The position numbers and the translations under genes are program-made. A DNA stretch of 64,000 bases from Candidatus Dojkabacteria bacterium. Its GTDB lineage: Bacteria > Patescibacteriota > Dojkabacteria > B142 > JAFGMG01. Below, in pieces: positions 22,268 through 64,000 of the stretch; within the stretch, counting starts at the first letter, position 1; each line of letters opens with the position of its first letter. The notes below the pieces were generated by a model that saw only the letters and a list, made by a program, of their open reading frames with translations, made no database searches and had not been told where the DNA came from. The stretch covers positions 34,818-98,817 of the forward strand of contig JAFGMG010000001.1 in the NCBI GenBank assembly GCA_016927655.1. Reading direction: 5' to 3'.

Positions 22268-22903
22268 ATGCTCAACAAATACAAATTCATTCTTTTCGAC
22301 TTTGACGACACTCTCGTAAACACGCGCGAGCATATTTGGGCACATCACAAATATGTCGCAAAAGAATTTTACGAAATTGAACTCACAGATGAAAAACTAA
22401 AGGAACACTACGGAGAGCCAATGGAGGAACTCGTTTTGAATCTTTATGAGCGTAAAGATACCGCCGAGAATATGCTGACTAATTACACTAAAAGCAGAGA
22501 CCAATTCCCAAAGACAGTTTATCCAGATACAATTCCTACATTAAATAATCTTTTCGCCCTAGACAAACAACTAGGGATCATCACTGCTACTATGAAAGAA
22601 TATCTTGTCTCTGATTTGAAAAAATACCAATTCCCTTATGAAAAATTCTTATTGCTTCAAGGTGCCGACGAGACAGAATTCCACAAGCCAGACGGAAGAG
22701 TTTTTGACTTCGCATTTGAAGAAGCAAATAAGCTAGGGATTTCAAAAGCAGAAATCATCTATATTGGAGATGGACTAAAAGATCTAATGGCTTCTCAGGA
22801 TGCCGGGATTGATTTCATTGGAGTTGCAAAAGGGATGACAACGAAAGAGACTTTTGAAAAAGAGGGTGTGATAGCAATCACCGATCTGAGTGAACTTCTT
22901 TAA
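22268..22903 (+). CDS. HAD-superfamily hydrolase (phosphatase-like)
   Basis: Motif I ILFDFDDTLV, and a late IGDGLKDLMASQDAG matching motif IV. Confidence 0.7.
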   Translation: MLNKYKFILFDFDDTLVNTREHIWAHHKYVAKEFYEIELTDEKLKEHYGEPMEELVLNLYERKDTAENMLTNYTKSRDQFPKTVYPDTIPTLNNLFALDKQLGIITATMKEYLVSDLKKYQFPYEKFLLLQGADETEFHKPDGRVFDFAFEEANKLGISKAEIIYIGDGLKDLMASQDAGIDFIGVAKGMTTKETFEKEGVIAITDLSELL

Positions 22904-23252
22904 CAAAATAGCGGAATTCACAGTCAGGCTCGTTGTATGCGGGGTCTAGTCTTATTCGGGAAAATCTATCAACGACTACTTCCTCACCACAATGAGGTCT
23001 CTCAATTACCCAAAAATCCTCCTCCTCCGGGATTCCTTCCCAGAAAATCCCTGCATGCTCATAGCTGCATTCAGTTGTAACCACATAAATCACAATTCCA
23101 TTCTGCATGCGCATTGCAACATTTTCCAAATCAATTTCTTCAAATTCATTCAATTCAAGGTATAGACGGACAGTCTCAGGACGATCATTTACGATTGCAT
23201 CTACTAAGCCCATGCAATTTGATCTTGTAGTCTGGAATAATTCAATATCCAT
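22878..23252 (-). CDS. hypothetical protein
   Basis: 124-aa ORF with no recognisable motifs. Ends just before direct-repeat copy 1. Confidence 0.35.
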   Translation of the reverse strand: MDIELFQTTRSNCMGLVDAIVNDRPETVRLYLELNEFEEIDLENVAMRMQNGIVIYVVTTECSYEHAGIFWEGIPEEEDFWVIERPHCGEEVVVDRFSRIRLDPAYNEPDCEFRYFVKEVHSDR

Positions 23253-23286
23253 TTATCAAATTATACAGGAAATTCGTCTTGATGAG

Positions 23287-23314
23287 CCTACTCGGACAAA
23301 AGTCGTACCAGATT
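23287..23314 (+). repeat. direct repeat copy 1 (cctactcggacaaaagtcgtaccagatt)
   Basis: One of four near-identical ~30-bp direct repeats read from the sequence. Confidence 0.7.
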
Positions 23315-23342
23315 ATGAAAGCGATAAAATACTTGAATAAAC

Positions 23343-23612
23343 TTATTTATCTAGATTATCGACAAACTTTTTAAGTCTTGTGGAAAGGAGCTCATTTTCA
23401 CCGTCACCGAAATACAATTCCAGAATAATTCTCAAATCCATCAATTCTTTGTCAAAATGTTTATATCTAATATCTGTTTTAGGAATGTCAGTAGCCTTTA
23501 AATAATTGTCTTTTTCTAAGCACTCTCGTAGATGGTCCAGCAAAGCTAATTTACAAAAGTATTTGTTACTCCATTTCCCGTTAAGTAGAGTTTTGAATTG
23601 TTTCTGTTTCAT
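23343..23612 (-). CDS. hypothetical protein (cassette gene)
   Basis: 89-aa ORF lying between repeat copies 1 and 2. Confidence 0.35.
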   Translation of the reverse strand: MKQKQFKTLLNGKWSNKYFCKLALLDHLRECLEKDNYLKATDIPKTDIRYKHFDKELMDLRIILELYFGDGENELLSTRLKKFVDNLDK

Positions 23613-23693
23613 CTATAAAGTATAAAAAGTAATACTGGGCGAATTATAACAAAATTGGCAGGATAGTGGATATTGTTATTGGGTAGGTATTAT

Positions 23694-23726
23694 GACCCTA
23701 GTGGGACAAAAGTCAAACCAGATTTT
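23694..23726 (+). repeat. direct repeat copy 2 (gaccctagtgggacaaaagtcaaaccagatttt)
   Basis: Same repeat family and same orientation. Confidence 0.7.
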
Positions 23727-23784
23727 AATTGGTTTGAAGTGTTTTAAAAAGTTCACAGTTCAGGGTGAACTATGAACTTTTCTG

Positions 23785-23793
23785 TGGTACAAT
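23785..23793 (+). promoter_or_regulatory. extended -10 element TGgTACAAT. The ATG lies 7 nt downstream, consistent with a leaderless transcript
   Basis: Read from the sequence immediately upstream of the 23800 ORF. Confidence 0.4.
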
Positions 23794-23799
23794 AGATCC

Positions 23800-24771
23800 A
23801 TGAAAACATCGGAAAAAATACTAAAATTTATTGAAGAAGAAGGGGAAGCGACACCAAAACAAATCACGACCTACTCCGGTACGACAAATAGGGCTGTATT
23901 TAAACAGCTTGCAAAAATGACAGAGGCAGGGAAATTGATCAAAATAGGTAAACCTCCCAAAGTATTCTATAAGATTAGTATTGAAAAGGATAAAACAGAG
24001 AAAGCTATAAAACTCGACCAAGCTATAGAAAAAGAGATCGAACAGAATTTTCTTTATGTTACACCTTTGGGAGAATATTTTTCTGGTAAAAAGGGTTTTA
24101 TCAAATGGTGCGAGGAAAGGAAACTTAATATAGCACAACAAGCAAAGCAATATTCAAACATGCTTGCAAGAATTTATCGAAGAAAAGATGCTAAGGTGAT
24201 CATTGCAACAGATAAATTTAAAGACACATTTAGTGAAAATTTTCTTAAAGAGGTTTTTTATATTGATTTTTATTCTATCCCGCAGTTTGGGAAGACTAAA
24301 CTTGGACAGCTTTTGCTGTATGCAAAACAAAGCCAAGATAAAAAGAGAATTAAAGAGATTTCAAATATTGTTAGAGATCCTATTGATTATGTGATAAAGA
24401 AATACAAAATTGATGCGATAGGTTATATTCCCCCAACGGTTAGAAGAGAAGTTCAATTTATGAAAGAGCTTGAGAAGAATCTCAATCTACCTCTACCCCA
24501 AATCAAACTAACAAAAATTAAAACTGAGATTATAGTACCTCAAAAGACTTTGAATAAGATTAGAGATAGAATTACCAATGCTAAGAATACTATTATGGTT
24601 GAAGATAAGAGATCGTTTAACAATGTCTTGCTTATTGATGACGCTGCTGGTTCTGGTGCCTCACTTAACGAAACAGCAAAAAAATTACTGAATAGTGGTA
24701 TAGCGAATAAGGTTTATGGGTTGACTATAACAGGCAGCTACAAGGGTTTTGATGTGATTTCTGAAATCTGA
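23800..24771 (+). CDS. winged-helix HTH + phosphoribosyltransferase (PRTase) domain fusion protein
   Basis: N-terminal wHTH-like segment. C-terminal type I PRTase PRPP-binding motif (VLLIDDAAGSGASL). The TGA stop abuts repeat copy 3. Confidence 0.5.
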   Translation: MKTSEKILKFIEEEGEATPKQITTYSGTTNRAVFKQLAKMTEAGKLIKIGKPPKVFYKISIEKDKTEKAIKLDQAIEKEIEQNFLYVTPLGEYFSGKKGFIKWCEERKLNIAQQAKQYSNMLARIYRRKDAKVIIATDKFKDTFSENFLKEVFYIDFYSIPQFGKTKLGQLLLYAKQSQDKKRIKEISNIVRDPIDYVIKKYKIDAIGYIPPTVRREVQFMKELEKNLNLPLPQIKLTKIKTEIIVPQKTLNKIRDRITNAKNTIMVEDKRSFNNVLLIDDAAGSGASLNETAKKLLNSGIANKVYGLTITGSYKGFDVISEI

Positions 24772-24800
24772 CCCTACTCGGACAAAAGTCAAACCAGCTT
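24770..24800 (+). repeat. direct repeat copy 3 (gaccctactcggacaaaagtcaaaccagctt)
   Basis: Same repeat family and same orientation. Confidence 0.7.
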
Positions 24801-24808
24801 CTAAGATG

Positions 24809-25443
24809 GCTCAATTCAGTATCTCAAACTCCAACAACTCTGGGAAATGCTCCTCTATCTGCTCATTGGTTATAGCCTCTAAGTCAAGATCTGTATTTCT
24901 TGAGATTATTTCTTCTAGTCTCTTGGCATTTTTTCGATGTTCTTTAAAGTCTTCCTCTGGAGAACGACTCTTTAAATCCTCGAGTCTTTCAGAAATAGAT
25001 AAAATGCCATTTAATCCAATTCTTATATCACTATAAACGACAATAATAGATCCGATATTTGACTCTTCTATAATATTAGGAATGAACTGCCATTCAGTAT
25101 TTTTTACAATTTCAATTATAGATTTGTCGCATCCTATTTCTTGAACGATTCCAATTAAAGCACTATGCTCGTCATCTCCATGTTTTTTAATAGTTTATTT
25201 TTGAAAACTTATTAAATCCTCTATCTGAGCTGGACTCATGCCGAACTTCGATTGTTTCTGTGGATCGAAGGTTATGGGTTTGGCAATATCATGTAGCAAG
25301 GAAGCTGTGATAATTGCAGATTTATTGAGGTCACGACTAATCCAATGGTCAAGAATTATTTGAGACAAAGCTCCAACTCTTAGCATGTGAGTGACAAGTG
25401 CCGAAGGAGTCTGATATCTTTTATAAACTTCATTTATTGTCAT
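24809..25443 (-). pseudogene. HD-domain phosphohydrolase gene interrupted by an in-frame TAA
   Basis: The 82-aa ORF 25195..25443 carries the HD motif (LLHDIAK) and ends at a TAA. The same frame then continues for ~128 more codons with no Met, down to ~24809. Confidence 0.5.
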
Positions 25444-25511
25444 ATTTCGATCTTAGAGGATTATCGACACGAAAGCAATATTCGGAGAATAGCTGATAGT
25501 AAGGCAAGATG

Positions 25512-25540
25512 GCCCTACTCGGACAAAAGTTAAACCAGAT
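25512..25540 (+). repeat. direct repeat copy 4 (gccctactcggacaaaagttaaaccagat)
   Basis: Same repeat family and same orientation. Confidence 0.7.
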
Positions 25541-25593
25541 AATCAAAACGTTAGATAATGTAATAATATTGGGCAGTCTATACACGACAAAAA

Positions 25594-25602
25594 TGGTATA
25601 AT
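25594..25602 (+). promoter_or_regulatory. extended -10 element TGgTATAAT. The ATG lies 6 nt downstream (leaderless)
   Basis: Read from the sequence upstream of the 25608 ORF. Confidence 0.45.
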
Positions 25603-25607
25603 GTGTT

Positions 25608-25871
25608 ATGGAAAAAAGACTAGAACAACTTATAAAAAAAAATAGAGAAATATTTTGGGATGTGCCTTCTGGAAGCCTAAACCAACTCTCACAAGAAGCC
25701 ATTTTTGAACGCATATTAGAATTTGGAAATATAGAGTCTTTTGAAGAATTAACTGAAGCAACCAAAGGAAATACCGCACAAATTTTTAACAGGCTAATCA
25801 ATAAAAAACGTGTAAACCTATCTCCAAGAATAATAAATTTTATGAATACTTATCTTGAATACAATTCATAG
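25608..25871 (+). CDS. small protein upstream of and overlapping the AbiEii-like gene. Possible cognate antitoxin or regulator
   Basis: 87 aa. Overlaps the downstream toxin-like gene by 17 nt. Leaderless-type promoter. Confidence 0.3.
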   Translation: MEKRLEQLIKKNREIFWDVPSGSLNQLSQEAIFERILEFGNIESFEELTEATKGNTAQIFNRLINKKRVNLSPRIINFMNTYLEYNS

Positions 25872-26466
25872 AGAGGTTTTAAATAAGAAACAGCTAGAGT
25901 TATGGCCACTTCTCCCGCAGTTTAAAGATTTCTATTTGGCTGGAGGAACATCATTAGCATTACAAATTGGACACAGAAAATCTATTGACTTTGATCTTTT
26001 TCATAATGCTCCAATCAATACAGAAGAAATACTAAAATTGCTTGATAAAAATAGAATTAGTAATGTTATTGTGGATACTCAAGATGAGTTCACATTGATT
26101 TACAATCAAATGAAGCTAACATTCTTAAATTATCCTTTTAACGTCAAGACCAACGTTAAGCTTGAAAATATCGAATCAATAGATCCTTTGACTATCGCTG
26201 CAATGAAAGCCTATGCTCTTGGAAGAAGGGCCAAATGGAAGGATTATGTAGACTTGTACTTTGTTTCCAGGAAATACTCTTTGGATCATATTATCGACAG
26301 AGCTAAGAATATTTTTGATAATCTTTTTTCAGAAAAATTATTTCGTACACAACTTTGCTATTTTGATGACGTGGATTATACAGAGAAAGTAGAATACACT
26401 GAAGGACATGAGGTTACAGATAAAAAGATCAAAGAGCACTTGAAGAAAGTTTCCACGGATTTATGA
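25855..26466 (+). CDS. AbiEii-like nucleotidyltransferase (type IV toxin-antitoxin toxin family, DUF1814-like)
   Basis: LAGGTSLALQIGHRKSIDFDLF matches the GGTAL...R.S.D.D motif of AbiEii/DUF1814 nucleotidyltransferases. Confidence 0.5.
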   Translation: MNTIHREVLNKKQLELWPLLPQFKDFYLAGGTSLALQIGHRKSIDFDLFHNAPINTEEILKLLDKNRISNVIVDTQDEFTLIYNQMKLTFLNYPFNVKTNVKLENIESIDPLTIAAMKAYALGRRAKWKDYVDLYFVSRKYSLDHIIDRAKNIFDNLFSEKLFRTQLCYFDDVDYTEKVEYTEGHEVTDKKIKEHLKKVSTDL

Positions 26467-26535
26467 CCCTACCGGGAATCGAACCCGGATTTACAGATTG
26501 AGAATCTGCTGTCCTAACCGTTAGACGATAGGGCC
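26464..26535 (-). tRNA. tRNA-Glu (anticodon CUC)
   Basis: Hand-folded cloverleaf: acceptor GGCCCUA/UAGGGUC, D-arm GUCU-AACGGUUA-GGAC, anticodon stem GCAGA/UCUGU with loop UUCUCAA, T-arm CCGGG-UUCGAUU-CCCGG, discriminator A. Confidence 0.7.
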
Positions 26536-26575: not shown

Positions 26576-27595
26576 CTACTTCTCAAACACATAAAGCGGC
26601 ACCTCTTCAAGCCATTTGTCTTTCCAGCCGTTATTCACCGCCAGGAAATCCATTTTCTCAAAGCCTCCTGCAAGTGCATCTTCAATTTCATAAAGATTCA
26701 AGAAGTTCCCAATGCCTGGACAATTATCCACGTCATAACCGCATTTGATCGGAGCATAAATCTTATTATAAAGAAGAATTAGATCAACCCCCATTATTTC
26801 CCCATCAATTTCCACACTAAGCATCCTGATATCGTAAGAATCGTGAATTTTACCAAGCTCGACAACGTTCCTGAAAGCCTCAATCTGACGAGGATCCTCC
26901 CAGTCAGCAAGCTGCCCCTTTTCTTTCAGTCTGGCTTTACTCAGCCTGATCAAATGATCTAAATCTTCAAATCTATCACGAACCACAACAGGATTCCTGG
27001 ATTCAATAACTCTTCTATCACGCTTCATGTTATAACGTCTCTTCTTTTTCAAATTGTTCAGGACCGAATCCAGGGTATTGTATTTTTTCAAATCAAGAAT
27101 ATATTTCGAATCATCTTTTTTGAACCTTTCTGGATTTGCGCTTTTTTTGACAGTTTCGCTTGAAATAGAGCCTAAATGCAGCGGAGCAGGTGCCAGATCC
27201 AAAAGTAGATCAACAAGCGTGTCATCCTTAACCAGAATTTTTGTTTCTTCCTGCCACCAGCTGCCAAACCAGATAAACCTGTTGTTATCAGCTTCAAACC
27301 ATAAGGGGAATAATCCGACATTTGCATCCTGCTTAGAAATCGCAACGAAATACGGAACACGGCCGAATCCCTTCCAAAAAGCATATCGAAATTCCCATGT
27401 ATCGAAAATTGTTTTGAAGCTTGAGAATTCCTTCCACAACACTTTGCAAGAGTCAATATCACTTACTATTTTTACTTCATATCCTTTCGCTTTGAGTTCA
27501 GTTAAAGTTTTTTGGTTTAATTTTTCTATTCCTAAACTAGGAGGCTCATCACTTGAAGTAGTTTCATTTGAAGCACCAGAAATGGCACTTATCAT
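26576..27595 (-). CDS. acyl-CoA N-acyltransferase-fold protein (FemAB / CelD-BcsL-like)
   Basis: 339 aa. The only support is a weak family-level resemblance. Confidence 0.3.
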   Translation of the reverse strand: MISAISGASNETTSSDEPPSLGIEKLNQKTLTELKAKGYEVKIVSDIDSCKVLWKEFSSFKTIFDTWEFRYAFWKGFGRVPYFVAISKQDANVGLFPLWFEADNNRFIWFGSWWQEETKILVKDDTLVDLLLDLAPAPLHLGSISSETVKKSANPERFKKDDSKYILDLKKYNTLDSVLNNLKKKRRYNMKRDRRVIESRNPVVVRDRFEDLDHLIRLSKARLKEKGQLADWEDPRQIEAFRNVVELGKIHDSYDIRMLSVEIDGEIMGVDLILLYNKIYAPIKCGYDVDNCPGIGNFLNLYEIEDALAGGFEKMDFLAVNNGWKDKWLEEVPLYVFEK

Positions 27596-54778: not shown

Positions 54779-54853
54779 GGTGGTTGTAGCTCAATTGGTT
54801 AGAGCACCGGTTTGTGGTACCGGGGGTTGTGGGTTCAAGTCCCATCTACCACC
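54779..54853 (+). tRNA. tRNA-His (anticodon GUG) with G-1 and discriminator C. CCA is encoded immediately 3' (to 54856)
   Basis: Hand-folded: G-1, acceptor GUGGUUG/CUACCAC (one mismatch), UA, D-arm GCUC-AAUUGGUUA-GAGC, anticodon stem CCGGU/ACCGG with loop UUGUGGU, T-arm GUGGG-UUCAAGU-CCCAU. Confidence 0.8.
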
Positions 54854-56305
54854 CCATACTGTACTATCTTCCAAATTTGCAAGTAGATTGAACGGTTCTA
54901 AGTAGTCGTAGTGCAGTTTTTTGCCATCCCATGTAACGTTCTGAAGTACAGTCTTGATTAAAAGCTGAGCTTCATGAGGTTCCGAACGTTTAAATAACTC
55001 TGCACTATGCTTAGCCAGCTCTACAATAAGGTTTGCGGTCACATAGAAGGCTCTATCGACCTTTTGTACATTGGTTAATTTCCTTTCTATTTCGTCTAGT
55101 TGAGATTGATACTGTTTGTTCTTTTTTTCATACAATTCATTAGTAATACTTTCATCATATTTATCATCTAGTAGTTTTAGCATTCTATTATTAATAGCCT
55201 CTCTTTCTGAAACCAGATGTTTTATCAGGTCTTTTGAAATACCGTAGCTAGTCTCATTTAAATCTCTTAGGTCTTTGAGTACTTTTTCTGCAGTATTTTT
55301 ATCAAGTTGGATATTCTTAAAAGCTTTGGCAAATTGGTTCTTAAGAATTTCCTCACTTACATATTGAGCTCCATGCTTTCCTCCGTATTGTGTACATCTG
55401 TAATAGTTTTTCCCTCTTTGTTCTTCTGGGCTTAATGTATAACCGCAGACAGAGCATTTTATTAATGTTCTATAATGGAACTCCTTGCCCCTATATTTTT
55501 CTTTTCCATCCCATTTTGTTCGTCCTTCTTTAATATCTTGTACTTGATTAAATAAGTGTTCAGATACTATCGTTTCGTAGATATGTGGATACTCAAGATT
55601 TTTCTTTTTGTAGGTTGCAATGCCTATATAAAACTTATCTCCAAGTATTCTACCTATCATGGATTTACCAAGTTTTATATTATAGTCTTCAAGTATTTTT
55701 GCTGATAGTTGGCTCATTGAGTAAGTTTGTGTTGCGTATAATTCATATAGCTTTGCAACAACAATAGCCTCAATAGGTACTACTTTAACTGTCTTAATGC
55801 CTTTATCTGCATCAATAGTTATATTTTTATATCCAAATGGAGCTTTAGTAAGTATTTCTCCACTTTTTACTTTTACATCTATTTTCCTTTTTACATTGTC
55901 ACTTATAGCATCCGAATAATATTGAGCGAGTAATGCCCCAAGGTTAAATTTGAATTTCTCTGTAGCATATGAGTTCTTATCAATAATCAAGTTTTCAGAT
56001 GAAAAATGTAGTACAACTTTATCATCGTCTAATAGCCTTTGTATAGGGACTATGTGCATGAAATTTCTTAGTAGTCTGTCTACCTTATCGACTACCAATG
56101 CCACTTTCTCTTTTTGTGACTCAACATGCTTAATTACTGCATCAAACTTTTCTCTTTGAGTTTTATAAGCTGATTCGTGGAAGTCAAAAACATCTTGTTC
56201 AGAATATGTGAAGTTCACTTTTTCAGCATAGTCCTTCAACTTCAACAGCTGACCATCTGTTTCTTGTTCGTCTGTTGATACTCTAGCTAAAAGAATTGCT
56301 TTCAT
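54791..56305 (-). CDS. large serine recombinase (resolvase/invertase catalytic domain + recombinase domain + zinc ribbon)
   Basis: N-terminal ILLARVSTDEQ (catalytic Ser) and VDRLLRN. C-terminal CSVCGY...YYRCTQY zinc ribbon. The last ~25 codons of the ORF are antisense to tRNA-His. Confidence 0.8.
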   Translation of the reverse strand: MKAILLARVSTDEQETDGQLLKLKDYAEKVNFTYSEQDVFDFHESAYKTQREKFDAVIKHVESQKEKVALVVDKVDRLLRNFMHIVPIQRLLDDDKVVLHFSSENLIIDKNSYATEKFKFNLGALLAQYYSDAISDNVKRKIDVKVKSGEILTKAPFGYKNITIDADKGIKTVKVVPIEAIVVAKLYELYATQTYSMSQLSAKILEDYNIKLGKSMIGRILGDKFYIGIATYKKKNLEYPHIYETIVSEHLFNQVQDIKEGRTKWDGKEKYRGKEFHYRTLIKCSVCGYTLSPEEQRGKNYYRCTQYGGKHGAQYVSEEILKNQFAKAFKNIQLDKNTAEKVLKDLRDLNETSYGISKDLIKHLVSEREAINNRMLKLLDDKYDESITNELYEKKNKQYQSQLDEIERKLTNVQKVDRAFYVTANLIVELAKHSAELFKRSEPHEAQLLIKTVLQNVTWDGKKLHYDYLEPFNLLANLEDSTVWGGRWDLNPQPPVPQTGALTN

Positions 56306-56310
56306 GTTTG

Positions 56311-57261
56311 TTAATAATTTGATCCATAAGTCTTATTTGTTAGTTCTGCCATAGTCTTCGAATTCAGGATATCTTCCAACTTGTAGTATCTAGGACCATA
56401 GAGAGCTAATTGAGGGGTATCACCTAAGATTACAGGATTCTCAAGTTTTTGAATGTTTCCATCATGATGAATAATGTACTTTCCTGGTTTACCTTCAAAT
56501 GGCTCAATTTTGGTAATTTTTGCATAATATCTAATACTACTGATTGGGGCGGCTTCGTAAAGTGCAACGTATTTTAATTTATCAATATTTGATTGACCTA
56601 TCCTTACAGCCCACCAAGCATTTTTCTCTTCGAAAGCCTTTATTCTTCCCTCTCCTTTACATGGTCCTACGATTGTATCGTAAACTCTCTCAGCATTTGT
56701 CTGATGCTCTTTTACTGGCTTTTCTTCTATTGCTACATCACCTTCATCTTTAAGTGGCTCAAAAAGGTTAAAGCCCAAAGTAGAAACGAGTAGTTCAACG
56801 TCATCAAAGAAATCTAGAATTGTTTCCTGTTTAAATTCATGAAGGTTGTTTTGGTTTGGATTTGTCCTATTTTGCACTTCAAATCTTCCTATTTCGATTG
56901 CCTTCATTACTGCATATGATTCAAGGAACTTAACATCTGCTTTATCTAGGCTTCCATTCGAAGATACTACTACTACTGCCCATTGCCAAAAATCTTTATT
57001 GACCTCGTGATTTTTTATTCGGTGGATAAAATTTTCACACTCTCCGATGTAAACACTTGTTCTTTCATCATCAAATAACATATACAAAGCAGGAGATGTA
57101 AGGTCTTGTCTTGTATTTGCAAAACTAATTTGATTCCTTGGGATTACATAGACTTTAGCTGTACTAACAGATAATTCAGCGATTTTCACTCCATTAGGAT
57201 CAGAGTCTTTAAGAAAAATCTGTATTGTTTTTGCTCGTGCCATGTTTATTTTATTAATCAA
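56311..57261 (-). CDS. GIY-YIG (T5orf172-like) nuclease domain protein with a C-terminal domain of unknown function
   Basis: ALYMLFDDERTSVYIGECENFIHRIKNH fits the GIY...YIG...N...R...H pattern. Confidence 0.45.
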   Translation of the reverse strand: MINKINMARAKTIQIFLKDSDPNGVKIAELSVSTAKVYVIPRNQISFANTRQDLTSPALYMLFDDERTSVYIGECENFIHRIKNHEVNKDFWQWAVVVVSSNGSLDKADVKFLESYAVMKAIEIGRFEVQNRTNPNQNNLHEFKQETILDFFDDVELLVSTLGFNLFEPLKDEGDVAIEEKPVKEHQTNAERVYDTIVGPCKGEGRIKAFEEKNAWWAVRIGQSNIDKLKYVALYEAAPISSIRYYAKITKIEPFEGKPGKYIIHHDGNIQKLENPVILGDTPQLALYGPRYYKLEDILNSKTMAELTNKTYGSNY

Positions 57262-57262
57262 A

Positions 57263-59149
57263 TTATGCTACCCAAAGGTTTTGACCAAATATACTCTTTA
57301 GATTCCACTTCTTTGTAGTGTCTACAGCCCGCTCTAAGCATATAAATCGCATGTCTTTCATGCCTTCCAGTATCTTTAGTGTTGAATTACTTATCGTGTC
57401 GTCTAGACACACTAGAGCTTCTTTCTCACCATCTGAAATCTTCCATATTTTGTTTTCTTTTATCTCTTCAATTAGTTCTTTATTGAAAGTAAGTTTGAAT
57501 CCATCTTTTAGAGCGATTTCATAAAGTAACTCTTCTTCTTCAAATTCAAACTTCATTTGAGACTTTGCTTTTTCTAAGTACTCCTCAAAAGCTTTCATAT
57601 TCTCATCTTCTGATTTCTCAGGATCAGGTGTAAATTGATTTTCAGGGAAGAAGCTAGGAGCCAATTTGAATACTTTAAATCCCAAATCGAGATTTTTACC
57701 ATCTTTGAGTAGTTTCCCTTCGTCTTCTTTCTTAATTTTTTCCGAAACTCTTTTAACTCTTTCAATACAGATATCTGATATTGTTTTATATCCTGCTTTG
57801 TACGCTTCACTCTTTTCATCTGTAAGTTCAGGAAGTTGTACTAGTATGTATTTTCTATTCCCACCATCTTCTTTATTTAGTTCCATTACTGCATGAGCAG
57901 TAGTTCCTGAGCCTGCAAAGAAGTCTAGAATTATATCGTCATTTTTACCATCAGAGGAAAGTTTTAATAGGTGCGATAATAGCTGGACTGGTTTGGTATA
58001 GTTGAAATAGTTATAGTTAAATATACTAAGAAAATCTAATGTAGCTGATTGTGTACTTCCTGCAATTGAGTGATCTAAAAATGAACGAGGTACGACCTTC
58101 TCCGCTTCACTAAGAAATTGCTTTTTTCTTGGGGATTTACTATTCCCGTCACTTCCCCAATAAAGCAAATTGTCCTCTAAATGCTTTTGATGTGTTTCTT
58201 TTGAATAGGCCCATACTGCAGTCTCACGTGGCCATATTTCCTCTCCTGTATTTGGATTTATAATAGGATAATACAAATTTGGTCTCTCATTTTTATTCTT
58301 ATTGCATGTATATGCAGCAGAATTCCAAGCACCTCGAGGATCATTATCGGGATTGGAATAATATGAGTTTTGTTTCGCTGTTCTTTCAAGTCGTTGTGGA
58401 TACCAGCTGTTTTTATCCTTTCCATAAACAAGTAAGTATTCATGATCACTGCTAAACCATTTTGAATCGTTTGCTGGAGAAACCCTTTTTTTCCAAACGA
58501 GCATAGCTACAAAATTTTCCTCTCCAAACACCTCATCCGTTATCTTTCTCAAATTATGGACTTCATTGTCATCAATACTCACGAATATAACTCCGTCATC
58601 TTTTAGAAGTTCTCTTGCTAAAACAAGCCTTGGATACATCATGTTTAGCCAATTGCTATGGTATCTACCTTGTGTTTCTGTGTTTGTATCTATCTTTACT
58701 CCATTTTCTGTAGTTCCACTCTTTTCCCAATATGCTTTTTTATCTTCTGAATAGTTATCTGAATATACAAAATCATTTCCAGTATTGTATGGAGGATCAA
58801 TATAAATACATTTAATCTTTCCTGAATATGACTTTTGTAAGAGCTTTAGAACCTCTAGATTGTCTCCTTCTATTATCATATTGTCTGTACTCTCAAACTC
58901 TATACTTCGCTCCTTGTCAGGCGTTAGATTCGCTCTGCTAGGCTTGTAGGCATTCCTTTTAGCAGATATTTTACCTGCCCAATTAAATTCATATTTACCT
59001 GTTGCAAGACTTGGATAGTTTTTACTCAAAAGTTCAAGCTCTTTGATGTCTAAAACCCCGTCTTCATTGAATAATTGAGGCATAGCACTTTGGAGTGCTT
59101 TAAGCTTTTCTTCTTGTAAATCGAGTGACTGTTTGTTGATTTTGTTCAT
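57263..59149 (-). CDS. mod: Type III restriction-modification methyltransferase (Mod). Beta-class N6-adenine / N4-cytosine MTase
   Basis: Motif IV YIDPPYNTGNDF near the N-terminus, motif I FFAGSGTTAHA near the C-terminus (beta permutation), and a central variable region. Confidence 0.75.
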   Translation of the reverse strand: MNKINKQSLDLQEEKLKALQSAMPQLFNEDGVLDIKELELLSKNYPSLATGKYEFNWAGKISAKRNAYKPSRANLTPDKERSIEFESTDNMIIEGDNLEVLKLLQKSYSGKIKCIYIDPPYNTGNDFVYSDNYSEDKKAYWEKSGTTENGVKIDTNTETQGRYHSNWLNMMYPRLVLARELLKDDGVIFVSIDDNEVHNLRKITDEVFGEENFVAMLVWKKRVSPANDSKWFSSDHEYLLVYGKDKNSWYPQRLERTAKQNSYYSNPDNDPRGAWNSAAYTCNKNKNERPNLYYPIINPNTGEEIWPRETAVWAYSKETHQKHLEDNLLYWGSDGNSKSPRKKQFLSEAEKVVPRSFLDHSIAGSTQSATLDFLSIFNYNYFNYTKPVQLLSHLLKLSSDGKNDDIILDFFAGSGTTAHAVMELNKEDGGNRKYILVQLPELTDEKSEAYKAGYKTISDICIERVKRVSEKIKKEDEGKLLKDGKNLDLGFKVFKLAPSFFPENQFTPDPEKSEDENMKAFEEYLEKAKSQMKFEFEEEELLYEIALKDGFKLTFNKELIEEIKENKIWKISDGEKEALVCLDDTISNSTLKILEGMKDMRFICLERAVDTTKKWNLKSIFGQNLWVA

Positions 59150-59151
59150 AT

Positions 59152-61818
59152 TTAGAAAATATTAAGATTAAGTTTGTTATTCGCCTTTGATTTAAAATCA
59201 GTAAAGCTTTCTACAGGTGCTAAGTACTCTTTTAGTCCAATAGCTTCAAAGTGTTTAATAGCACATTGTATTTTCATCTTCTCTGTTTCCTTTAGTTGAT
59301 TCCATTCTGTAGAACCTTTTGTTTCTATTACAAAGTAGTACTTTGTTGATTCTCCATCTTCAAGCGAGGTCTTTTCTAAAACAAGTGCAAAATCTGGATT
59401 GTATTTGCCAATTGGAGTATCGATCTCATACCATTTGGGAAGTTTTATAAATGCTTTGACCTTATTTTCATTATCAACTCCAAGTGTGAAGTCTTTCTCA
59501 ATATCTGAGTCGTAAATCACACCATCGTATAAGCCATTTTTAACTGGAACAATTTCACCGTATGTTTCGATAATTTCTTGAAAGAGCGAAGTATCGTAGC
59601 TATAGCCTAAGGTCTGATAATTCACTAGATTTACCATTTCATCTTCAAGTATGTGCTGAATCCTTTTAACTGCCTCTGCTACATAGATAATTGGATTTTT
59701 GTTAAGCATATGTTTATTATTTAACCCTTCAAATATCTGAATAACTGTATTTACACTTAGTGCAGTTTGTTCGGATATTTCATCTACAAAATCTATACTC
59801 ACAACTGATACCTTTGAAACAGCTTCATCACTTCCTACATGTCTTGAGCTTTCTGTAATGCCTACATCTTCAGATAGAGATTGAATTTTGTTAAGCTCTG
59901 AAATGATAGTTTGTTCTTGTACTACTATCTCGTTAAGTGATTCGATACATTTATCTACTAGCTCAGGTTCTCTAAATACAACAGAGTATTTAGTTTTTTG
60001 AGATATTTTCTTCCATAAGTTTTTAAAGTCATCACCTCCTAGAACTGATTTATTAAGCTTAATTTTATTGAGGTTCTTTCTGGCATCTCTTGGTTTTGGT
60101 AGAGGTGATTTAGTACCAAATTCTTCGATAAGTTCGCTTTGATAACTTTCAGCAAAAGAATAATAGCTTTGATTTGCAACAACCGTTAGTAAATTCACTT
60201 CTTGACCTTCTGAAATGTCTTCTGCATCTCTGTATCGCTTACCATCTTGCATAACTGATATTCTCAAACCTCTTCCTATCTCTTGCCTTTTCTTGATCGT
60301 ACTTTCGGATTCATTTAGTGTACAGATGTTAAACACATTCGGATTATCCCATCCAACGCCTAAAGCAGAGTGAGAGAATATAAATTCAAGTGGCTCATCA
60401 AATGAAAGCAATCTCTCTTTATCTTTCATAATAAGGTTGAATATCTCACTGTTTTTTGTCATTGAGTTCTCATTATCTGTATACTCTCCTGTTGATTTTG
60501 TCTTTGCAAAATAACCGTTATGAACTTTAGCTATATCATCAGGCTCAACTCCATATTTATTCTTGAACTCTTCTTGATAGATTTCTACAAATAACTTTCT
60601 AATAATTCCGTCTACTTCAACATAGTTAGCAACTCTATCAATGAAAAACAGTGATAAGACTTTAATGTCCTTTTCTTTATAAATTTCTTTTTTCTGGAAA
60701 TGTTTTTTAATCGTCCATCTTATTTGTTCTCTAAAAATTCCTTCTTTGTCCCACCCAATTTTATTCCCTTTAGTAAGTTCTGTTCCGTTAGAGAATCTAA
60801 CTTTTTCAGTACCATCTAGAGGATCAATCAAAATTCTACTAATTACCCAACCTCTGTATACAGGGTTCTTAGTTTTTTCTTCCAAATTATCACCATCTTT
60901 AAAATACATAGATTTAGTCCGAAGTTGATTTCCAAAGCTCACATTTAGCTTGGCCTCAGGCGGTTTTCCAGTATTTGAAGTTCGGAGTCCTTCGAACATA
61001 ATCTGTACATTACTCTGCATATTACTCTCATGAATTGAGAATACTTCTATCTTTTTAACCAAACCTTGATTATATGCATCATAAGGTGTTAATCGATAAA
61101 CCAGGTTAATTTGCTTTTTGTGTGTAGCAGAGTATCTTAATTTGAATAGAGGATTGAGTCCTGCAAATCTTTTCTTCATATTAGCTGAATCCATGCCCTC
61201 TTGTGGCTCATCCATTATGATAATAGGATTTGTTTGCTTGATTAGGTCAATGAGTTTAACTCCTTGGTTTGAATCTCTTTCTTGATTGATAATCCTGTCA
61301 TCCGTATTGAATGCTTGTACATTAGTAACCATGATTTGAAGTGTATTTCCAGTTGCAAAGTTTCTAACTCTTACAGGCTTTTTACTGTCGTATTCAAAGT
61401 AGTCTGCTTTTGTGTTGTAGAGCTGTTTAAAGTGTTGTTCTGTCATTTTAAGTGTTTTTATAACACCCTCTTTGACAGGAATACTTGGGACAACAATAAT
61501 AAACTTGTTTAATCCATATTCTTTGTGAAGCTCTAGAATTGTCCTTAGATAAACATAGGTTTTACCTGTACCTGTTTCCATTTCAATTGAGAAATCTAGT
61601 GTATCTTTATCTAAAAATGTTTCTAAAATTGAATTTTCTGTAGTAATTTGATTGAAGTTTTCAAATACCTTTTCAGGAGTGATTTTTAATACATTTTTTG
61701 AGACCTCACTGAATACTCTATTTTCAGCTTTAATGTAGGGTGCTCCATCAAAGAGCTTAACTACTGAGTTAATAGCATCTATTTGGTACTGTAAGTTTGG
61801 TTCAAATTGTATTTTCAT
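59152..61818 (-). CDS. res: Type III restriction endonuclease Res subunit (SF2 helicase-like ATPase + nuclease)
   Basis: Walker A METGTGKTY, DEAH-like box IIIMDEPQ, ~890 aa. Sits immediately upstream of and co-oriented with mod. Confidence 0.7.
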   Translation of the reverse strand: MKIQFEPNLQYQIDAINSVVKLFDGAPYIKAENRVFSEVSKNVLKITPEKVFENFNQITTENSILETFLDKDTLDFSIEMETGTGKTYVYLRTILELHKEYGLNKFIIVVPSIPVKEGVIKTLKMTEQHFKQLYNTKADYFEYDSKKPVRVRNFATGNTLQIMVTNVQAFNTDDRIINQERDSNQGVKLIDLIKQTNPIIIMDEPQEGMDSANMKKRFAGLNPLFKLRYSATHKKQINLVYRLTPYDAYNQGLVKKIEVFSIHESNMQSNVQIMFEGLRTSNTGKPPEAKLNVSFGNQLRTKSMYFKDGDNLEEKTKNPVYRGWVISRILIDPLDGTEKVRFSNGTELTKGNKIGWDKEGIFREQIRWTIKKHFQKKEIYKEKDIKVLSLFFIDRVANYVEVDGIIRKLFVEIYQEEFKNKYGVEPDDIAKVHNGYFAKTKSTGEYTDNENSMTKNSEIFNLIMKDKERLLSFDEPLEFIFSHSALGVGWDNPNVFNICTLNESESTIKKRQEIGRGLRISVMQDGKRYRDAEDISEGQEVNLLTVVANQSYYSFAESYQSELIEEFGTKSPLPKPRDARKNLNKIKLNKSVLGGDDFKNLWKKISQKTKYSVVFREPELVDKCIESLNEIVVQEQTIISELNKIQSLSEDVGITESSRHVGSDEAVSKVSVVSIDFVDEISEQTALSVNTVIQIFEGLNNKHMLNKNPIIYVAEAVKRIQHILEDEMVNLVNYQTLGYSYDTSLFQEIIETYGEIVPVKNGLYDGVIYDSDIEKDFTLGVDNENKVKAFIKLPKWYEIDTPIGKYNPDFALVLEKTSLEDGESTKYYFVIETKGSTEWNQLKETEKMKIQCAIKHFEAIGLKEYLAPVESFTDFKSKANNKLNLNIF

Positions 61819-62028
61819 TTATTTCATTAAGTCATCAATTGATATGTTTAGAGCTTTGCAAAGCATAACCACCTGCAAAAAGGCAGGATTTTTTGTTTTT
61901 CCTGTTTCAATCTTTGTAATAGTGGAGTAGCTGACACCTGATATCAAGGCTAAATGCCTTTGTGTTATATGTTGAGATTCTCTTTCTTCTCGAATTTTTG
62001 TTACAACTTTTTTTATTACACTTTCCAT
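61819..62028 (-). CDS. XRE-family HTH transcriptional regulator
   Basis: HTH_3 motif ITQRHLALISGVSYSTITKIETGK. Confidence 0.75.
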   Translation of the reverse strand: MESVIKKVVTKIREERESQHITQRHLALISGVSYSTITKIETGKTKNPAFLQVVMLCKALNISIDDLMK

Positions 62029-62029
62029 A

Positions 62030-63097: not shown

Positions 63098-63377
63098 TTA
63101 ATTCATTAAGTTTTCTAATTACTTCTTCCTCAATAACTTTTCCGATTTCTTTGTTGATTGGATAAAAGATGGCAATACTTCTTTCACCTCTTTGTTTAGT
63201 GGGATATACAAGGCGATATGAGCCATCTAGGCGGGTGAAAATAGCAATTGAGCTACAATAGATCCCTTCAAATAAAACGAATGTACAAAATGCGATTAAA
63301 CCATCTTTTGGCTTTACTGGAATTATCTCTATCTCTGAAATTATATTAGTTGTTCTTAACAAGTTTCTCTCTTTCAT
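63066..63377 (-). CDS. spoVG: SpoVG-family nucleic-acid-binding protein
   Basis: IAFCTFVLFEGIYCSSIAIFTRLDGSYRLVYPTKQRGERSIAIFYPINKEIGKVIEEEV parallels the SpoVG core [59 protein letters not shown]. Confidence 0.55.
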   Translation of the reverse strand: MKERNLLRTTNIISEIEIIPVKPKDGLIAFCTFVLFEGIYCSSIAIFTRLDGSYRLVYPTKQRGERSIAIFYPINKEIGKVIEEEVIRKLNELNDRHNNFEVG

Positions 63378-63566
63378 TTATCTTGATGAGGGTTTCAATA
63401 AATGTAACAAGTCTTGCACTAGCATCTGGTTTGCTTAGTACTTCTTGTAGTCTTTTCTGTTTTAGTGCGACTTGCTCGTTTTTCATAATAAGAGCTTATC
63501 GCTTGCATGAAGAATTATCCCTTTGGTAGGGATATTTGGGGTGGTTTAGTGGTGTTTAGGGGCGTT

Positions 63567-63998: not shown

Positions 63999-64000
63999 GT

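Follow-up and report, generated by a model that had tools for sequence, protein, structure and literature searches.

Four direct repeats as probable recombination-site scars at the 3' end of tRNA-Glu in a Dojkabacteria bacterium

Introduction

In staphylococci, composite SCC and pseudo-SCC arrays are formed by the CcrAB large serine recombinases, which insert elements at the 3' end of rlmH (orfX). Both in SCC arrays and in the CIME accretion of streptococcal ICEs the elements are separated by short direct repeats, and members without a recombinase use enzymes provided in trans. The locus described here likewise is an array at the 3' end of one conserved gene with short direct repeats in between, whereas SCC and CIME belong to Firmicutes, have a protein-coding target, comprise elements of 10-60 kb and use sites that are not tRNA look-alikes. 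SCC is also discussed in the study of the ssrA islands of Dehalococcoides, which form tandem arrays with 20-bp repeat boundaries and, just before the repeat, a conserved non-ssrA motif of 15 bp (PMC3146451). A serine integrase (DsiB) lies beside ssrA, integrase-less members occur, and islands without an integration module were read as cis-mobilisable or fixed (PMC3146451). The present locus shares with them the tandem units downstream of a small RNA gene, bounded by direct repeats of the 3' end of this gene, the motif just upstream of each repeat that cannot be aligned to the target gene, and the reverse-strand large serine recombinase against a target gene (here tRNA-His, and tRNA-Glu in the related locus L004; L numbers denote the loci compared). 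In difference to Dehalococcoides, where the target is tmRNA, the repeat 20 bp, the islands ~10 kb and the integrase often kept, the target here is tRNA-Glu, the exact core ~9 bp and the unit size 0.4-1.1 kb, with no integrase in any unit. The +5 bp spacing rule reported below is not described for the Dehalococcoides islands (PMC3146451).

Of the tycheposon-type elements of Prochlorococcus, 910/937 use tyrosine integrases, and integrase-less DNA and scattered partial tRNAs are interpreted as remnants or cargo left by transient elements (bioRxiv 10.1101/2020.12.28.424599). Like these islands, our array lies in a streamlined genome, would be seeded at a tRNA gene, has putative defence genes in its cargo and carries partial tRNA copies between what would be successive integrations, newer elements pushing older ones outward. 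In contrast, tycheposons mostly have tyrosine recombinases and often replication genes, and their repeats are true partial tRNAs of ~40 nt, whereas the repeat here is a short core with a non-tRNA arm. Tycheposon activity has been shown by experiment, while the present array is known from sequence alone. Integron cassette arrays resemble it in their growth at one end from a fixed point, in single genes with minimal spacers and an own site after each, and in ORF ends that extend into the recombination site. They differ from it in having IntI, attI/Pc and attC hairpins; the units here are self-promoted and the anchor is a tRNA gene.

The genomes of CPR bacteria are tiny; to our knowledge, their mobile elements and gene flow are poorly described and few integrative elements are known. 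The window analysed here is a stretch of 64,000 nucleotides from the genome of a Candidatus Dojkabacteria bacterium.

Results

Four direct repeats beside tRNA-Glu

Four same-orientation repeats of ~30 bp had been predicted next to tRNA-Glu, and this was borne out by pattern matching and shuffles. The 28-mer CCCTACTCGGACAAAAGTCAAACCAGAT matches the + strand at 23286-23313, 23696-23723, 24772-24799 and 25513-25540 (n=4), with 3, 2, 1 and 1 mismatches from copy 1 to copy 4, where the expectation from dinucleotide shuffles of the window is 0.00 matches. Preceded by a GA prefix it gives the 30-mer whose copies are listed in Table 1; the originally predicted positions 23694 and 24770 agree with these starts, whereas 23287 and 25512 were off by 1-3 nt. 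The copies are all direct, with start-to-start distances of 410, 1076 and 741 nt. No fifth copy was found in the 64-kb window, even when 9/30 mismatches were allowed or an nhmmer profile of the four copies was used, and the sole other weak match at the expected place in these searches was the 3' end of tRNA-Glu (26463-26484). The pattern was not found in the three public collections searched either, and the comparative sample is therefore small.

The 3.2 kb that adjoin the 3' end of the tRNA-Glu(CTC) gene (TGACCCTACC on the + strand), to its left in window coordinates, contain all four copies. These subdivide the low-GC DNA of the island (23284-26463; GC 0.33-0.35 over 23-26 kb vs 0.38-0.40 in the flanks) into four units of one or two genes. 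The tRNA has an identity of 100% with its counterpart in L044 and of 90% with its counterparts in L045 and L004. The order NusA-YlxR-GNAT-tRNA-Glu is conserved: L044 retains the synteny, and in L045 GNAT is likewise next to tRNA-Glu; downstream of the tRNA both relatives, each on a short contig, have different genes. A search for an integrase to the right of tRNA-Glu had been proposed, but the gene there is the conserved GNAT, and since the island lies on the left (3') side no integrase is expected on the right. At the other end of the island, the 124-aa ORF has no family match in Pfam, PADLOC, NCBIfam or PHROGs and carries a TGTATAAT box of its own, 7 nt ahead of the ATG. No relative yielded a true empty site that shares the left flank, and none was found with the HAD or the 124-aa flank.

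Table 1. Features of the tRNA-Glu island, its flanks and the tRNA-His locus (window coordinates).
Feature	Position	Strand	Evidence and remarks
124-aa ORF	22878..23252	-	just past copy 1; presumed old chromosomal (B') side
Repeat copy 1	23284..23313	+	furthest from tRNA; tRNA orientation: ATCTGGTACGACTTTTGTCCGAGTAGGCTCA
Unit 1: 89-aa ORF	23343..23612	-	open reading frame; function unassigned
Repeat copy 2	23694..23723	+	tRNA orientation: ATCTGGTTTGACTTTTGTCCCACTAGGGTCA
PRTase control region	23747..23793	+	palindromic operator 23747-23781 (inverted repeat), then extended -10 box
Unit 2: wHTH-PRTase, 323 aa	23800..24771	+	Pfam PRTase-CE (weak); PADLOC PsyrT E 3.6e-15
Repeat copy 3	24770..24799	+	core equals tRNA end over 9 nt (GTAGGGTCA); PRTase TGA stop inside core
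Unit 3: HD-domain gene	24811..25443	-	Pfam HD E 1.1e-6; 82 aa, stop, then 127 aa
Repeat copy 4	25511..25540	+	nearest tRNA
Unit 4a: extended -10 box and 87-aa ORF	25594..25871	+	ORF 25608-25871; DUF6922 match weak
Unit 4b: AbiEii-like nucleotidyltransferase, 203 aa	25855..26466	+	Pfam PF08843 E 2e-12; PADLOC AbiEii (weak)
tRNA-Glu(CTC)	26464..26535	-	ARAGORN; Rfam tRNA 65.6 bits; intact; anchor and presumed attB; 3' end toward island
GNAT/FemAB-like gene	26576..27595	-	Pfam; 5' side of tRNA; conserved flank
tRNA-His	54780..54856	+	context, elsewhere in window
Large serine recombinase gene, 504 aa	54791..56305	-	Resolvase, Recombinase and Zn-ribbon; adjoins/overlaps tRNA-His

Each copy joins a common arm to the tRNA end

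In tRNA orientation the copies are laid out as ATCTGGTTTGAC-TTTTG-TCCGA-GTAGGGTCA. The left arm resembles the T-arm of the tRNA but is 5 bp longer, and only the last ~9 nt (GTAGGGTCA) are identical to the tRNA. The four cores, all direct relative to the tRNA, are GTAGGGTCA (exact), GTAGGGCCA, CTAGGGTCA and GTAGGCTCA. As predicted, the start of the repeat matches the 3' acceptor end of tRNA-Glu: on the + strand both have (T)GACCCTAC in common in the same orientation, exactly in copy 3 and with one mismatch each in copies 1, 2 and 4. The additional claim that the repeats are degenerate att copies, each decayed from the tRNA, is refuted by the non-tRNA arm ATCTGGTTTGAC and the 5-nt insertion, which are common to all copies including those of other genomes. 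In a MAFFT alignment both tRNAs have a single 5-nt gap against all seven copies, which is not expected from independent decay of tRNA copies. Because arm and insertion are common to all, each copy is best read as one half of a recombination site, contributed by an element and fused to ~9 nt of tRNA end.

From the start of the GTTY box to the end of ..TCA there are 26 nt in the copies of the window, L045, L046, L055 and L077 and 21 nt in the cognate tRNAs; for the tRNA-His of L084 the values are 28 nt in the copies vs 23 nt in the tRNA. In 11/11 copies from 5 loci, a count that spans at least three sequence-unrelated site families, the distance of the T-loop-like box from the tRNA-end core thus exceeds that in the cognate tRNA by exactly 5 bp. 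For serine integrases, the attB motif of the zinc-ribbon domain lies 5 bp closer to the centre than its attP counterpart, and the offset found here equals this published attP-vs-attB geometry of large serine recombinases (PMC3783163). No consistent inverted box that would represent a right half-site (P' or B') follows the cores at the 22 junctions examined; as the site of a serine recombinase should have two half-sites, this counts against that enzyme type. L044 shows one inverted arm after the tRNA with 9/12 matches, which is marginal (P ~0.02 per junction before correction for 13 junctions). At the copy 3 junction, a GGTTTGA box on the left and TCAAAACC on the right, the latter in the 3' end of the PRTase gene, lie at nearly mirrored distances.

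Genes and promoters of the units

The predicted contents of the units, i.e., an 89-aa ORF, a wHTH-PRTase gene, a broken HD gene and an AbiEii-like module ending at tRNA-Glu, were confirmed by ORFs and Pfam. The 89-aa ORF has no match in Pfam, PADLOC, NCBIfam or PHROGs. The wHTH-PRTase, a winged-helix plus phosphoribosyltransferase protein, also matches the PADLOC ShosT and retron PRTase models and is probably a defence or toxin-type effector. It has 2574 homologues at E<=0.001 and, among the matches listed, all are from Patescibacteria (CPR) lineages. The TGA stop of this gene (24769-24771) overlaps the first bases of copy 3, and in L055 the PRTase stop is likewise fused to an att-like copy. 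The HD-domain gene is broken by an in-frame TAA (25195-25197), a nonsense codon and not a frameshift. In the fourth unit the 87-aa ORF is the putative antitoxin partner of the AbiEii-like gene, and the TGA of the latter (26464-26466) coincides with the last 3 nt of tRNA-Glu.

Extended -10 boxes had been predicted just before two of these genes and were found there, TGGTACAAT (23785-23793) 6 nt before the ATG of the PRTase gene and TGGTATAAT (25594-25602) 5 nt before that of the 87-aa ORF. A palindromic operator, a TGnTAnnnT box and a start codon 5-9 nt later recur upstream of PRTase homologues at many loci, and this conserved layout supports the prediction that the PRTase gene is transcribed leaderless.

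Sites and cargo in related genomes

Repeat copies that flank variable content beside tRNA-Glu were expected in relatives, and L045 and L046 indeed carry other cargo. In L045, tRNA-Glu is followed by one alpha/beta-hydrolase gene and then by the repeat ATCTGGTTCGACTTTTGTCCGAGTAGGATCA, which matches copy 1 at 32/34 positions; the conservation of the site between this locus and the window is 94%, whereas the flanking GNAT protein is only 72% identical. As with the AbiEii-like gene of the window, a stop codon lies inside the tRNA end. L046 (Dojkabacteria GCA_016931155.1) has two copies behind tRNA-Glu(TTC), with the arm ATCTGGTTTG and a spacer of 12 nt in each. As for the cores, that of the outer copy (CCGTGAGGTCAT) is the end of L046's own tRNA-Glu(TTC), and that of the inner copy is degenerate (CCTTCGGGGTCAT). 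The units divided by these copies contain NYN and NUDIX, PRTase and NUDIX', and AbiEii/Ei, respectively, and the orientation of the PRTase gene to the site in L046 is opposite to that in the window. No copy was detected in the 21 kb of L046 outside the tRNA island.

Among 80 metagenome PRTase loci, 15/16 tRNAs within 2.1 kb point their 3' end at the gene, and the closest PRTase relatives (L048, L055, L059) adjoin tRNA-Glu(CTC). In L044, an 18-nt stretch of the tRNA end recurs without mismatch 158 nt downstream.

Recombinases

The ORFs of 22.8-26.6 kb, i.e., of the array, include no recombinase according to Pfam, PADLOC, NCBIfam and PHROGs. The large serine recombinase at tRNA-His is the only site-specific recombinase among the window ORFs screened; its ORF overlaps the antisense strand of this tRNA by 18-19 codons, and a type III restriction-modification island comes after it. 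Homologues of this recombinase end at ~485 aa or have other tRNA-antisense tails, and in L004 a recombinase-like ORF runs into tRNA-Glu. By tblastn no serine-recombinase homologues were found in L046, L055, L077, L084 or the other PRTase loci searched, and Pfam revealed no recombinase of any kind among selected ORFs of L046, L077 and L084. Tyrosine recombinases were absent from the window ORFs run against Pfam and from the ORFs tested in L046, L077 and L084. The odds that the enzyme behind the array would be a large serine recombinase are about even; this type is favoured by the +5 bp shift of the outer box, which is the attP-vs-attB difference, and by the fact that such recombinases abut tRNA 3' ends in the window and in a relative.

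Discussion

We consider the repeats to be recombination-site scars, each at the outer edge of one in a series of insertions at the tRNA-Glu(CTC) 3' end, with a probability of roughly 0.68. Within the sequences searched the repeat family is restricted to tRNA-Glu islands and follows the +5 bp rule, and serial site-specific insertion, as proposed in the original prediction, is favoured by cargo that varies between genomes (L045), by a core that tracks the local tRNA (in L046 its own) and by the lack of copies anywhere else in the 64 kb. In this process a recombinase would join the P-core-P' site of a circular element to the tRNA (B-core-B'), where the tRNA would remain intact and an attR-type junction with the P-core half would mark the end of the insert away from the tRNA. 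Every later insertion at the tRNA would displace the older units outward. The order that we infer for the insertions, as we do the enzyme family, would then result in the tRNA followed by the AbiE pair, copy 4, the HD gene, copy 3, the PRTase gene, copy 2, the 89-aa ORF, copy 1 and the old flank. The inserted modules would be integrase-less cargo, and our guess is that recombinase modules have since been lost while small self-promoted defence or toxin-type genes remain. The insertion reading is weakened by the lack of a recombinase gene in the array, by the unit size of 0.4-1.1 kb, which is far below that of usual integrative elements, and by four separate losses of a recombinase, each with tight gene boundaries, which call for a special explanation.

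Alternatively, the array might be an active integron-like platform, in which the units are mobile mini-circles with one arm-core site each and a recombinase encoded elsewhere inserts, excises and reshuffles them. Units of one or two genes with almost no spare DNA would suit such cassettes, and the stops of the PRTase gene (in copy 3) and of the AbiEii-like gene (in the tRNA) within the core recall integron cassette ORFs that end in attC, the former case being repeated in L055 and the latter in L045. Cassette arrays also show site conservation on one side, the site exceeds the flanking protein in conservation (94% vs 72%, L045), the copy 3 junction is nearly mirrored, and all arrays are without recombinase. 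However, no circular form, excision variant or changed order was seen, the right half-site is unconserved at junctions other than copy 3, and the orientation of the PRTase gene relative to the site flips between the window and L046, so gene and site are not one fixed travelling unit. With no hairpin attC, no intI and cassettes that have their own promoters, the integron-like array that had been offered as a second possibility also fails at what defines an integron, and we regard mobile cassettes as unlikely. Accretion by a tyrosine integrase at the tRNA 3' end, with the repeats as imperfect tRNA identity segments of related elements, appears distinctly unlikely. Most tRNA-targeted islands use such integrases (e.g., 910/937 tycheposon-type elements), the 9-nt exact acceptor-end core would fit a 6-8-bp overlap region, and the tRNA-end repeat of L044 is the classical pattern; but tyrosine recombinases are missing from the ORFs screened, nothing known of tyrosine-integrase sites would account for an outer box that is offset by a constant +5 bp in unrelated families of sites, and the recombinases seen against tRNA ends, at tRNA-His in the window and at tRNA-Glu in L004, are serine-type.

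Least of all would we expect a generic genome-specific repeat or regulatory element such as a -35 promoter module, clustered by chance or local duplication, which we hold to be highly improbable. It is true that the minus strand of the repeat contains TTGACT, that a promoter (TTGACT-16-CATAAT) is scored in copy 2, upstream of the 89-aa ORF, and that copies 1, 2 and 4 each stand before a minus-strand gene. But a -10 box at the right distance occurs in copy 2 only, copy 3 faces the antisense strand of the PRTase gene, and the adjoining genes have -10 boxes of their own. This reading finds no support within the window, as no copy is present in its other ~61 kb, nor in the 21 kb of L046 outside the tRNA island, and a promoter or dispersed repeat would not follow the local tRNA end as the L046 core does.

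Several known repeat classes were also compared with the copies and rejected. For integron attC, the single-strand DNA folds of three copies equal those of shuffles, and copy 2 folds only with outside sequence, forming a hairpin with the following 14 nt that is seen at no other copy; an integron was further dismissed as no tyrosine recombinase occurs among the Pfam-screened window ORFs and as the PRTase and AbiE units have their own extended -10 promoters. A CRISPR array has regular spacers of 25-50 nt, whereas the copies here start 410, 1076 and 741 nt apart, with entire genes in between. Xer/dif sites (pdif) have 28 bp with inverted 11-nt arms and a 6-nt centre, whereas our copies are all direct and show no dyad past GAC..GTC.

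If serial insertion at the tRNA-Glu end is correct, the accretion principle known for Dehalococcoides, Prochlorococcus and staphylococci would also underlie the building of a defence island at a tRNA gene in a Dojkabacteria genome. Accretion at tRNA ends is an already known way of island building; the small units of one or two genes are unusual. The scars would offer a reusable rule, i.e., a pseudo-tRNA end with a T-loop box displaced by exactly 5 bp, and if this holds more widely, att sites of serine recombinases at tRNA genes would become detectable without the enzyme. Should the units be individually mobile, they would represent an integron-like system of a new mechanistic type. It is rather unlikely that Patescibacteria (CPR) possess a tRNA-anchored cassette system that does the job of the integron with different parts. 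In such a system, every defence module would comprise a single gene under a leaderless promoter of its own, with a pseudo-tRNA half-site of ~31 bp behind it. Supplied in trans, a serine recombinase would read the universal T-loop box and the acceptor end to insert the modules and perhaps reshuffle them, and the recombinase module would depart after delivery, leaving the tRNA end free for the next cassette. The wHTH-PRTase family is common in these loci and appears to recur as cargo targeted to tRNAs; the layout of its operator and leaderless promoter is conserved.

Four direct repeats divide a small gene island beside tRNA-Glu

The original prediction described four direct repeats of about 30 bp beside tRNA-Glu, and this was confirmed, as a 28-mer matched the plus strand four times and gave 0 matches in the shuffled sequence used as a chance control (see the table; copy 4 is nearest to the tRNA). 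Copies are spaced by 410, 1076 and 741 nt. No fifth copy was found in the 64-kb window, either with up to 9 mismatches in 30 or with an nhmmer profile, whose sole additional match at the expected place is the tRNA-Glu 3' end. The GC content is 0.33-0.35 within 23-26 kb versus 0.38-0.40 on either side. The repeat pattern CCTANTNGGACAAAAGTNNNACCAG had 0 matches in genome_contigs, metagenome_contigs and viral_contigs, and a second degenerate repeat pattern had 0 in viral contigs. A generic pattern of arm, 12 nt and core gave two viral matches, which were read as chance: no tRNA is near either, and one locus has 62% GC. An RNA family search returned nothing known besides the tRNA itself.

Coordinates of the repeat copies, the units between them and further features in the window and in comparison loci
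Feature	Position	Strand	Details
Copy 1 (28-mer)	23286-23313	plus	3 mismatches; 30-mer (28-mer plus two leading bases) begins at 23284
Copy 2 (28-mer)	23696-23723	plus	2 mismatches; 30-mer begins at 23694
Copy 3 (28-mer)	24772-24799	plus	1 mismatch; 30-mer begins at 24770
Copy 4 (28-mer)	25513-25540	plus	1 mismatch; 30-mer begins at 25511
89-aa ORF	copy 1 to copy 2	minus	no family match
wHTH-PRTase unit	copy 2 to copy 3		palindromic operator, extended -10 box, 323-aa winged-helix and PRTase protein
Operator layout of PRTase	23747-23802
HD-domain gene	copy 3 to copy 4	minus	in-frame TAA at 25195-25197; frame runs on 127 codons to 24811
AbiEii-like unit	copy 4 to tRNA-Glu		extended -10 box, 87-aa ORF, 203-aa AbiEii-like nucleotidyltransferase
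tRNA-Glu(CTC)	26464-26535	minus
-10 box of 124-aa ORF	23253-23283
tRNA-His	54780-54856
504-aa recombinase	54791-56305	minus	Resolvase, Recombinase and zinc-ribbon domains; phrog_95 integrase, E 1.7e-63
tRNA-His island	54780-64000		GC 0.30-0.35
Type III methylase	57263-59149
Type III restriction helicase-endonuclease	59152-61818
Duplicated block, L046	9374-9842 and 10986-11453		same as L036 5374-5842 and 6986-7453
Insert behind tRNA-Glu, L044	4242-4416
Duplicated tRNA 5' part, L044	4100-4165
Duplicated tRNA 5' part, L004	2074-2180
PRTase paralogues, L084	2745-5057
tRNA-Lys repeat array, L038	12101-12519		Dojkabacteria CP129477.1

The TGA stop of the PRTase gene coincides with the start of copy 3, and the TGA stop of the AbiEii-like gene is formed by the last three bases of tRNA-Glu. 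The PRTase protein is identical to a Candidatus Dojkabacteria MAG protein (locus tag JW978_00370), and its best PADLOC matches are PsyrT (E 3.6e-15), ShosT and retron PRTase effectors. The gene content therefore makes the island a small collection of defence or toxin-type genes. Its conserved flank, GNAT-YlxR-NusA, adjoins tRNA-Glu on the 5' side; a HAD hydrolase and a 124-aa ORF form the opposite flank.

The HD gene had been described as broken, which was borne out: the break is a nonsense codon, a single in-frame TAA with no frameshift, reflecting either a recent mutation or an assembly error. The HD protein of the comparison locus L077 was rejected as its counterpart, as the two are unrelated. 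Past copy 1, the 124-aa ORF has an extended -10 box (TGTATAAT) 7 nt ahead of its ATG, and the leaderless-type layout therefore extends beyond the cassette genes.

The repeats combine a conserved arm with a short tRNA core

In tRNA orientation the copies read ATCTGGTTTGACTTTTGTCCGAGTAGGGTCA. When they are aligned to the 3' part of the tRNA (AATCCGGGTTCGAT-----TCCCGGTAGGGTCA), the last 9 nt (the core) equal the tRNA end, the T-arm region is merely imitated, and a 5-nt insertion is common to all copies. Four tRNA-end copies decaying independently would not be expected to acquire identical derived changes, and therefore the copies descend from each other or from a common element-borne site. In every copy of the window and of the comparison loci L045, L046, L055 and L077, a T-loop-like box (GTTY) opens 26 nt ahead of the end of ..TCA, versus 21 nt in their cognate tRNAs; for L084, a tRNA-His locus, the distances are 28 and 23. 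This +5 bp shift was seen in 11/11 copies, which fall into three or more site families whose arms are unrelated in sequence.

[quoted passage not shown] The shift matches this difference, so that the repeats resemble attP-type left half-sites to which the tRNA end has been joined. With the crossover placed near the terminal TCA, the box falls at positions ~18-24 of the repeat and ~13-19 of the tRNA, where the published ranges are 16-24 and 11-19 (PMC3783163). Integration into the tRNA, serving as attB, would have produced the copies as attR-type junctions. At the junctions checked, no consistent conserved right half-site follows the cores and no inverted arm is consistently present, L044 alone being marginal: its first 20 nt past the tRNA (TAAAAAGTCCAACCAAAGG) resemble the inverted window arm with a 9/12 match, only marginally above chance.

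Serial insertion at tRNA-Glu, as first proposed, holds in outline, whereas decayed tRNA copies do not agree with the shared 5-nt insertion and arm. On the alignments, the repeats are best read as element-derived half-sites plus a short tRNA core. A large serine recombinase probably carried out the insertions.

Similar tRNA-linked sites in comparison loci

At L045, where the flanking GNAT is 72% identical, the order is GNAT, tRNA-Glu(CTC), one alpha/beta-hydrolase gene and the repeat ATCTGGTTCGACTTTTGTCCGAGTAGGATCA. This repeat is identical to copy 1 in 32/34 positions, the tRNA itself in just 90%, and L045 is the same site carrying different cargo. In L046, from a different Dojkabacteria genome of the same sample (GCA_016931155.1), tRNA-Glu(TTC) is followed by NYN and NUDIX genes, a copy, PRTase and a further NUDIX gene (NUDIX'), a second copy, and a unit opening with AbiEii/AbiEi. 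The arm ATCTGGTTTG and a 12-nt spacer are kept in both copies; the outer core CCGTGAGGTCAT equals the genome's own tRNA end and the inner core is degenerate (CCTTCGGGGTCAT). Between genomes the arm is thus conserved, and the core changes with the local tRNA.

In L055 (PRTase 67% identical), tRNA-Glu and two genes are followed by a pseudo-tRNA-end copy that merges with the stop codon of PRTase (ATA TGA CCCCTCGCGG...), resembling copy 3 of the window. Behind the tRNA-Glu of L077 there are two copies of CCAGTTCTGAAAGCCAGCCTAAT joined to GGGTCACA, 3.7 and 7.1 kb downstream, and in L084 tRNA-His is followed by PRTase and then by the arm and AGCCACCCA. In L044 (GNAT 75% identical, tRNA identical to that of the window), 18 nt of the tRNA end recur without mismatch 158 nt further downstream, and the recombinase-like ORF of L004 runs into the 3' end of tRNA-Glu. 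In this lineage, insertions thus recur at the 3' end of tRNA-Glu. A NusA scan of genome_contigs gave only two relatives (65-68% identity), on short contigs, the remainder being unrelated phyla. Exact-protein matches were fragmented Logan contigs of the same sample only, whose breaks at the tRNA are uninformative.

Further rearrangements were seen at these loci. The 158-nt insert of L044 contains no genes. Just upstream of the intact tRNA-Glu, both L044 and L004 carry a duplicated tRNA 5' part (GGCCCTATCGTCTAAC...) with the D-loop interrupted by a GC-rich hairpin, and in L004 this fragment is separated from the tRNA by a GIY-YIG endonuclease ORF. A ~470-nt direct duplication of 83-88% identity, comprising most of a NUDIX gene and the att-like copy, flanks the PRTase gene in L046. 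In L084 two wHTH-PRTase paralogues stand in tandem behind tRNA-His, separated by an arm and a 9-nt tRNA-His core copy. A further tRNA-end repeat array of the phylum is found in L038, where tRNA-Lys is followed by two more copies of a ~63-nt unit, each opening with the final 12 nt of the tRNA and including a hairpin and a T-run.

A serine recombinase is linked to tRNA-His

The last 18-19 codons of the recombinase encoded in the window are the antisense strand of tRNA-His. Among its homologues (P0195-P0213), some end at ~485 aa with ...VWGG or ...RGA, where the WGG codons read antisense to the acceptor end of tRNA-His, and others have tails such as RPDLNRRPLGPQPSALTRLSYAHH or WWGSNPRPPLPQSGALTN, which resemble antisense tRNA. 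The C-terminal residues (window 54791-54850) therefore seem to follow the acceptor end of the target tRNA. Judged by these tails, the attP of this family overlaps the recombinase stop codon, and its recombinases insert at the very 3' terminus of tRNA genes. No second Dojkabacteria paralogue was recognised in the homologue search, and the recombinase is absent from viral contigs.

The recombinase opens a second tRNA-linked island and is followed by a 316-aa unknown protein, the type III methylase and restriction genes and a replication-protein-like ORF. This island extends past the end of the window.

Origin of the array

It had been proposed to look for an integrase to the right of tRNA-Glu, which is not the place to seek it. 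No recombinase lies inside the tRNA-Glu array, the analogous arrays and the other PRTase loci searched yielded no serine-recombinase homologue, and no empty site with both flanks turned up. The units are far below the size of ordinary integrative elements, and their gene ends abut the cores exactly, which random loss of four recombinase modules does not obviously explain. As alternatives to fossil scars, the units may be cargo left by a recombinase module that departs again, as proposed for tycheposon islands (bioRxiv 10.1101/2020.12.28.424599), or individually mobile cassettes.

An integron-like array, also considered in the original prediction, fails on attC structure (an attC-like or hairpin structure of the repeat was rejected), on intI and on promoterless cassettes. 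A CRISPR array fails on repeat spacing and a dif-type site on symmetry, and a dispersed repeat is not supported by the distribution within the 64-kb window, where no copy lies outside the island. The repeat was also rejected as a promoter, because a -10 box occurs only at copy 2. The closest known match, by analogy, is the tandem ssrA-specific island array of Dehalococcoides, in which the 3' end of the RNA gene recurs as a direct repeat, each repeat is directly preceded by a conserved non-target motif, a large serine recombinase abuts the target gene on the reverse strand, and some members have no integrase (PMC3146451). Tycheposon islands and composite SCC arrays share the same accretion logic, and the island is probably a miniature example, from a little-studied phylum, of such already known tRNA-anchored accretion islands.

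The wHTH-PRTase cargo family

At E<=0.001, the wHTH-PRTase matched 2574 homologues; the 120 best listed are 49-68% identical and ~323 aa long, the named ones coming from Patescibacteria (CPR) lineages. PRTase is absent from viral contigs. Homology between PRTase loci starts ~55 nt upstream, at the palindromic operator, and stops at the stop codon, the operator being followed by a TGnTAnnnT extended -10 box and, 5-9 nt later, the start codon. This layout, also seen upstream of PRTase in L036, L038, L042, L048, L050 and L055-L102, is suggestive of leaderless mRNAs and of autoregulation through the N-terminal winged helix. The leaderless transcripts proposed earlier for cassette genes gain support here, as the layout is conserved across PRTase loci and is thus a family trait. 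The operator half-sites vary by lineage (GTTCAnnGTTCA.., GTTCCTAGT.., GTTGACAGT..).

A tRNA lies within 2.1 kb in 16/80 metagenome PRTase loci, with its 3' end toward the gene in 15/16, and the three closest PRTase relatives adjoin tRNA-Glu(CTC). This fits a PRTase unit that formerly stood beside the tRNA and was moved outward by later insertions. In L050 and L052, which belong to one lineage, a long gene-free stretch with GC-rich paired segments (e.g., GAGCGCGAGGGCCTGACCTTCGGTCATGC) lies ~370 nt downstream of PRTase and could be a structured RNA.
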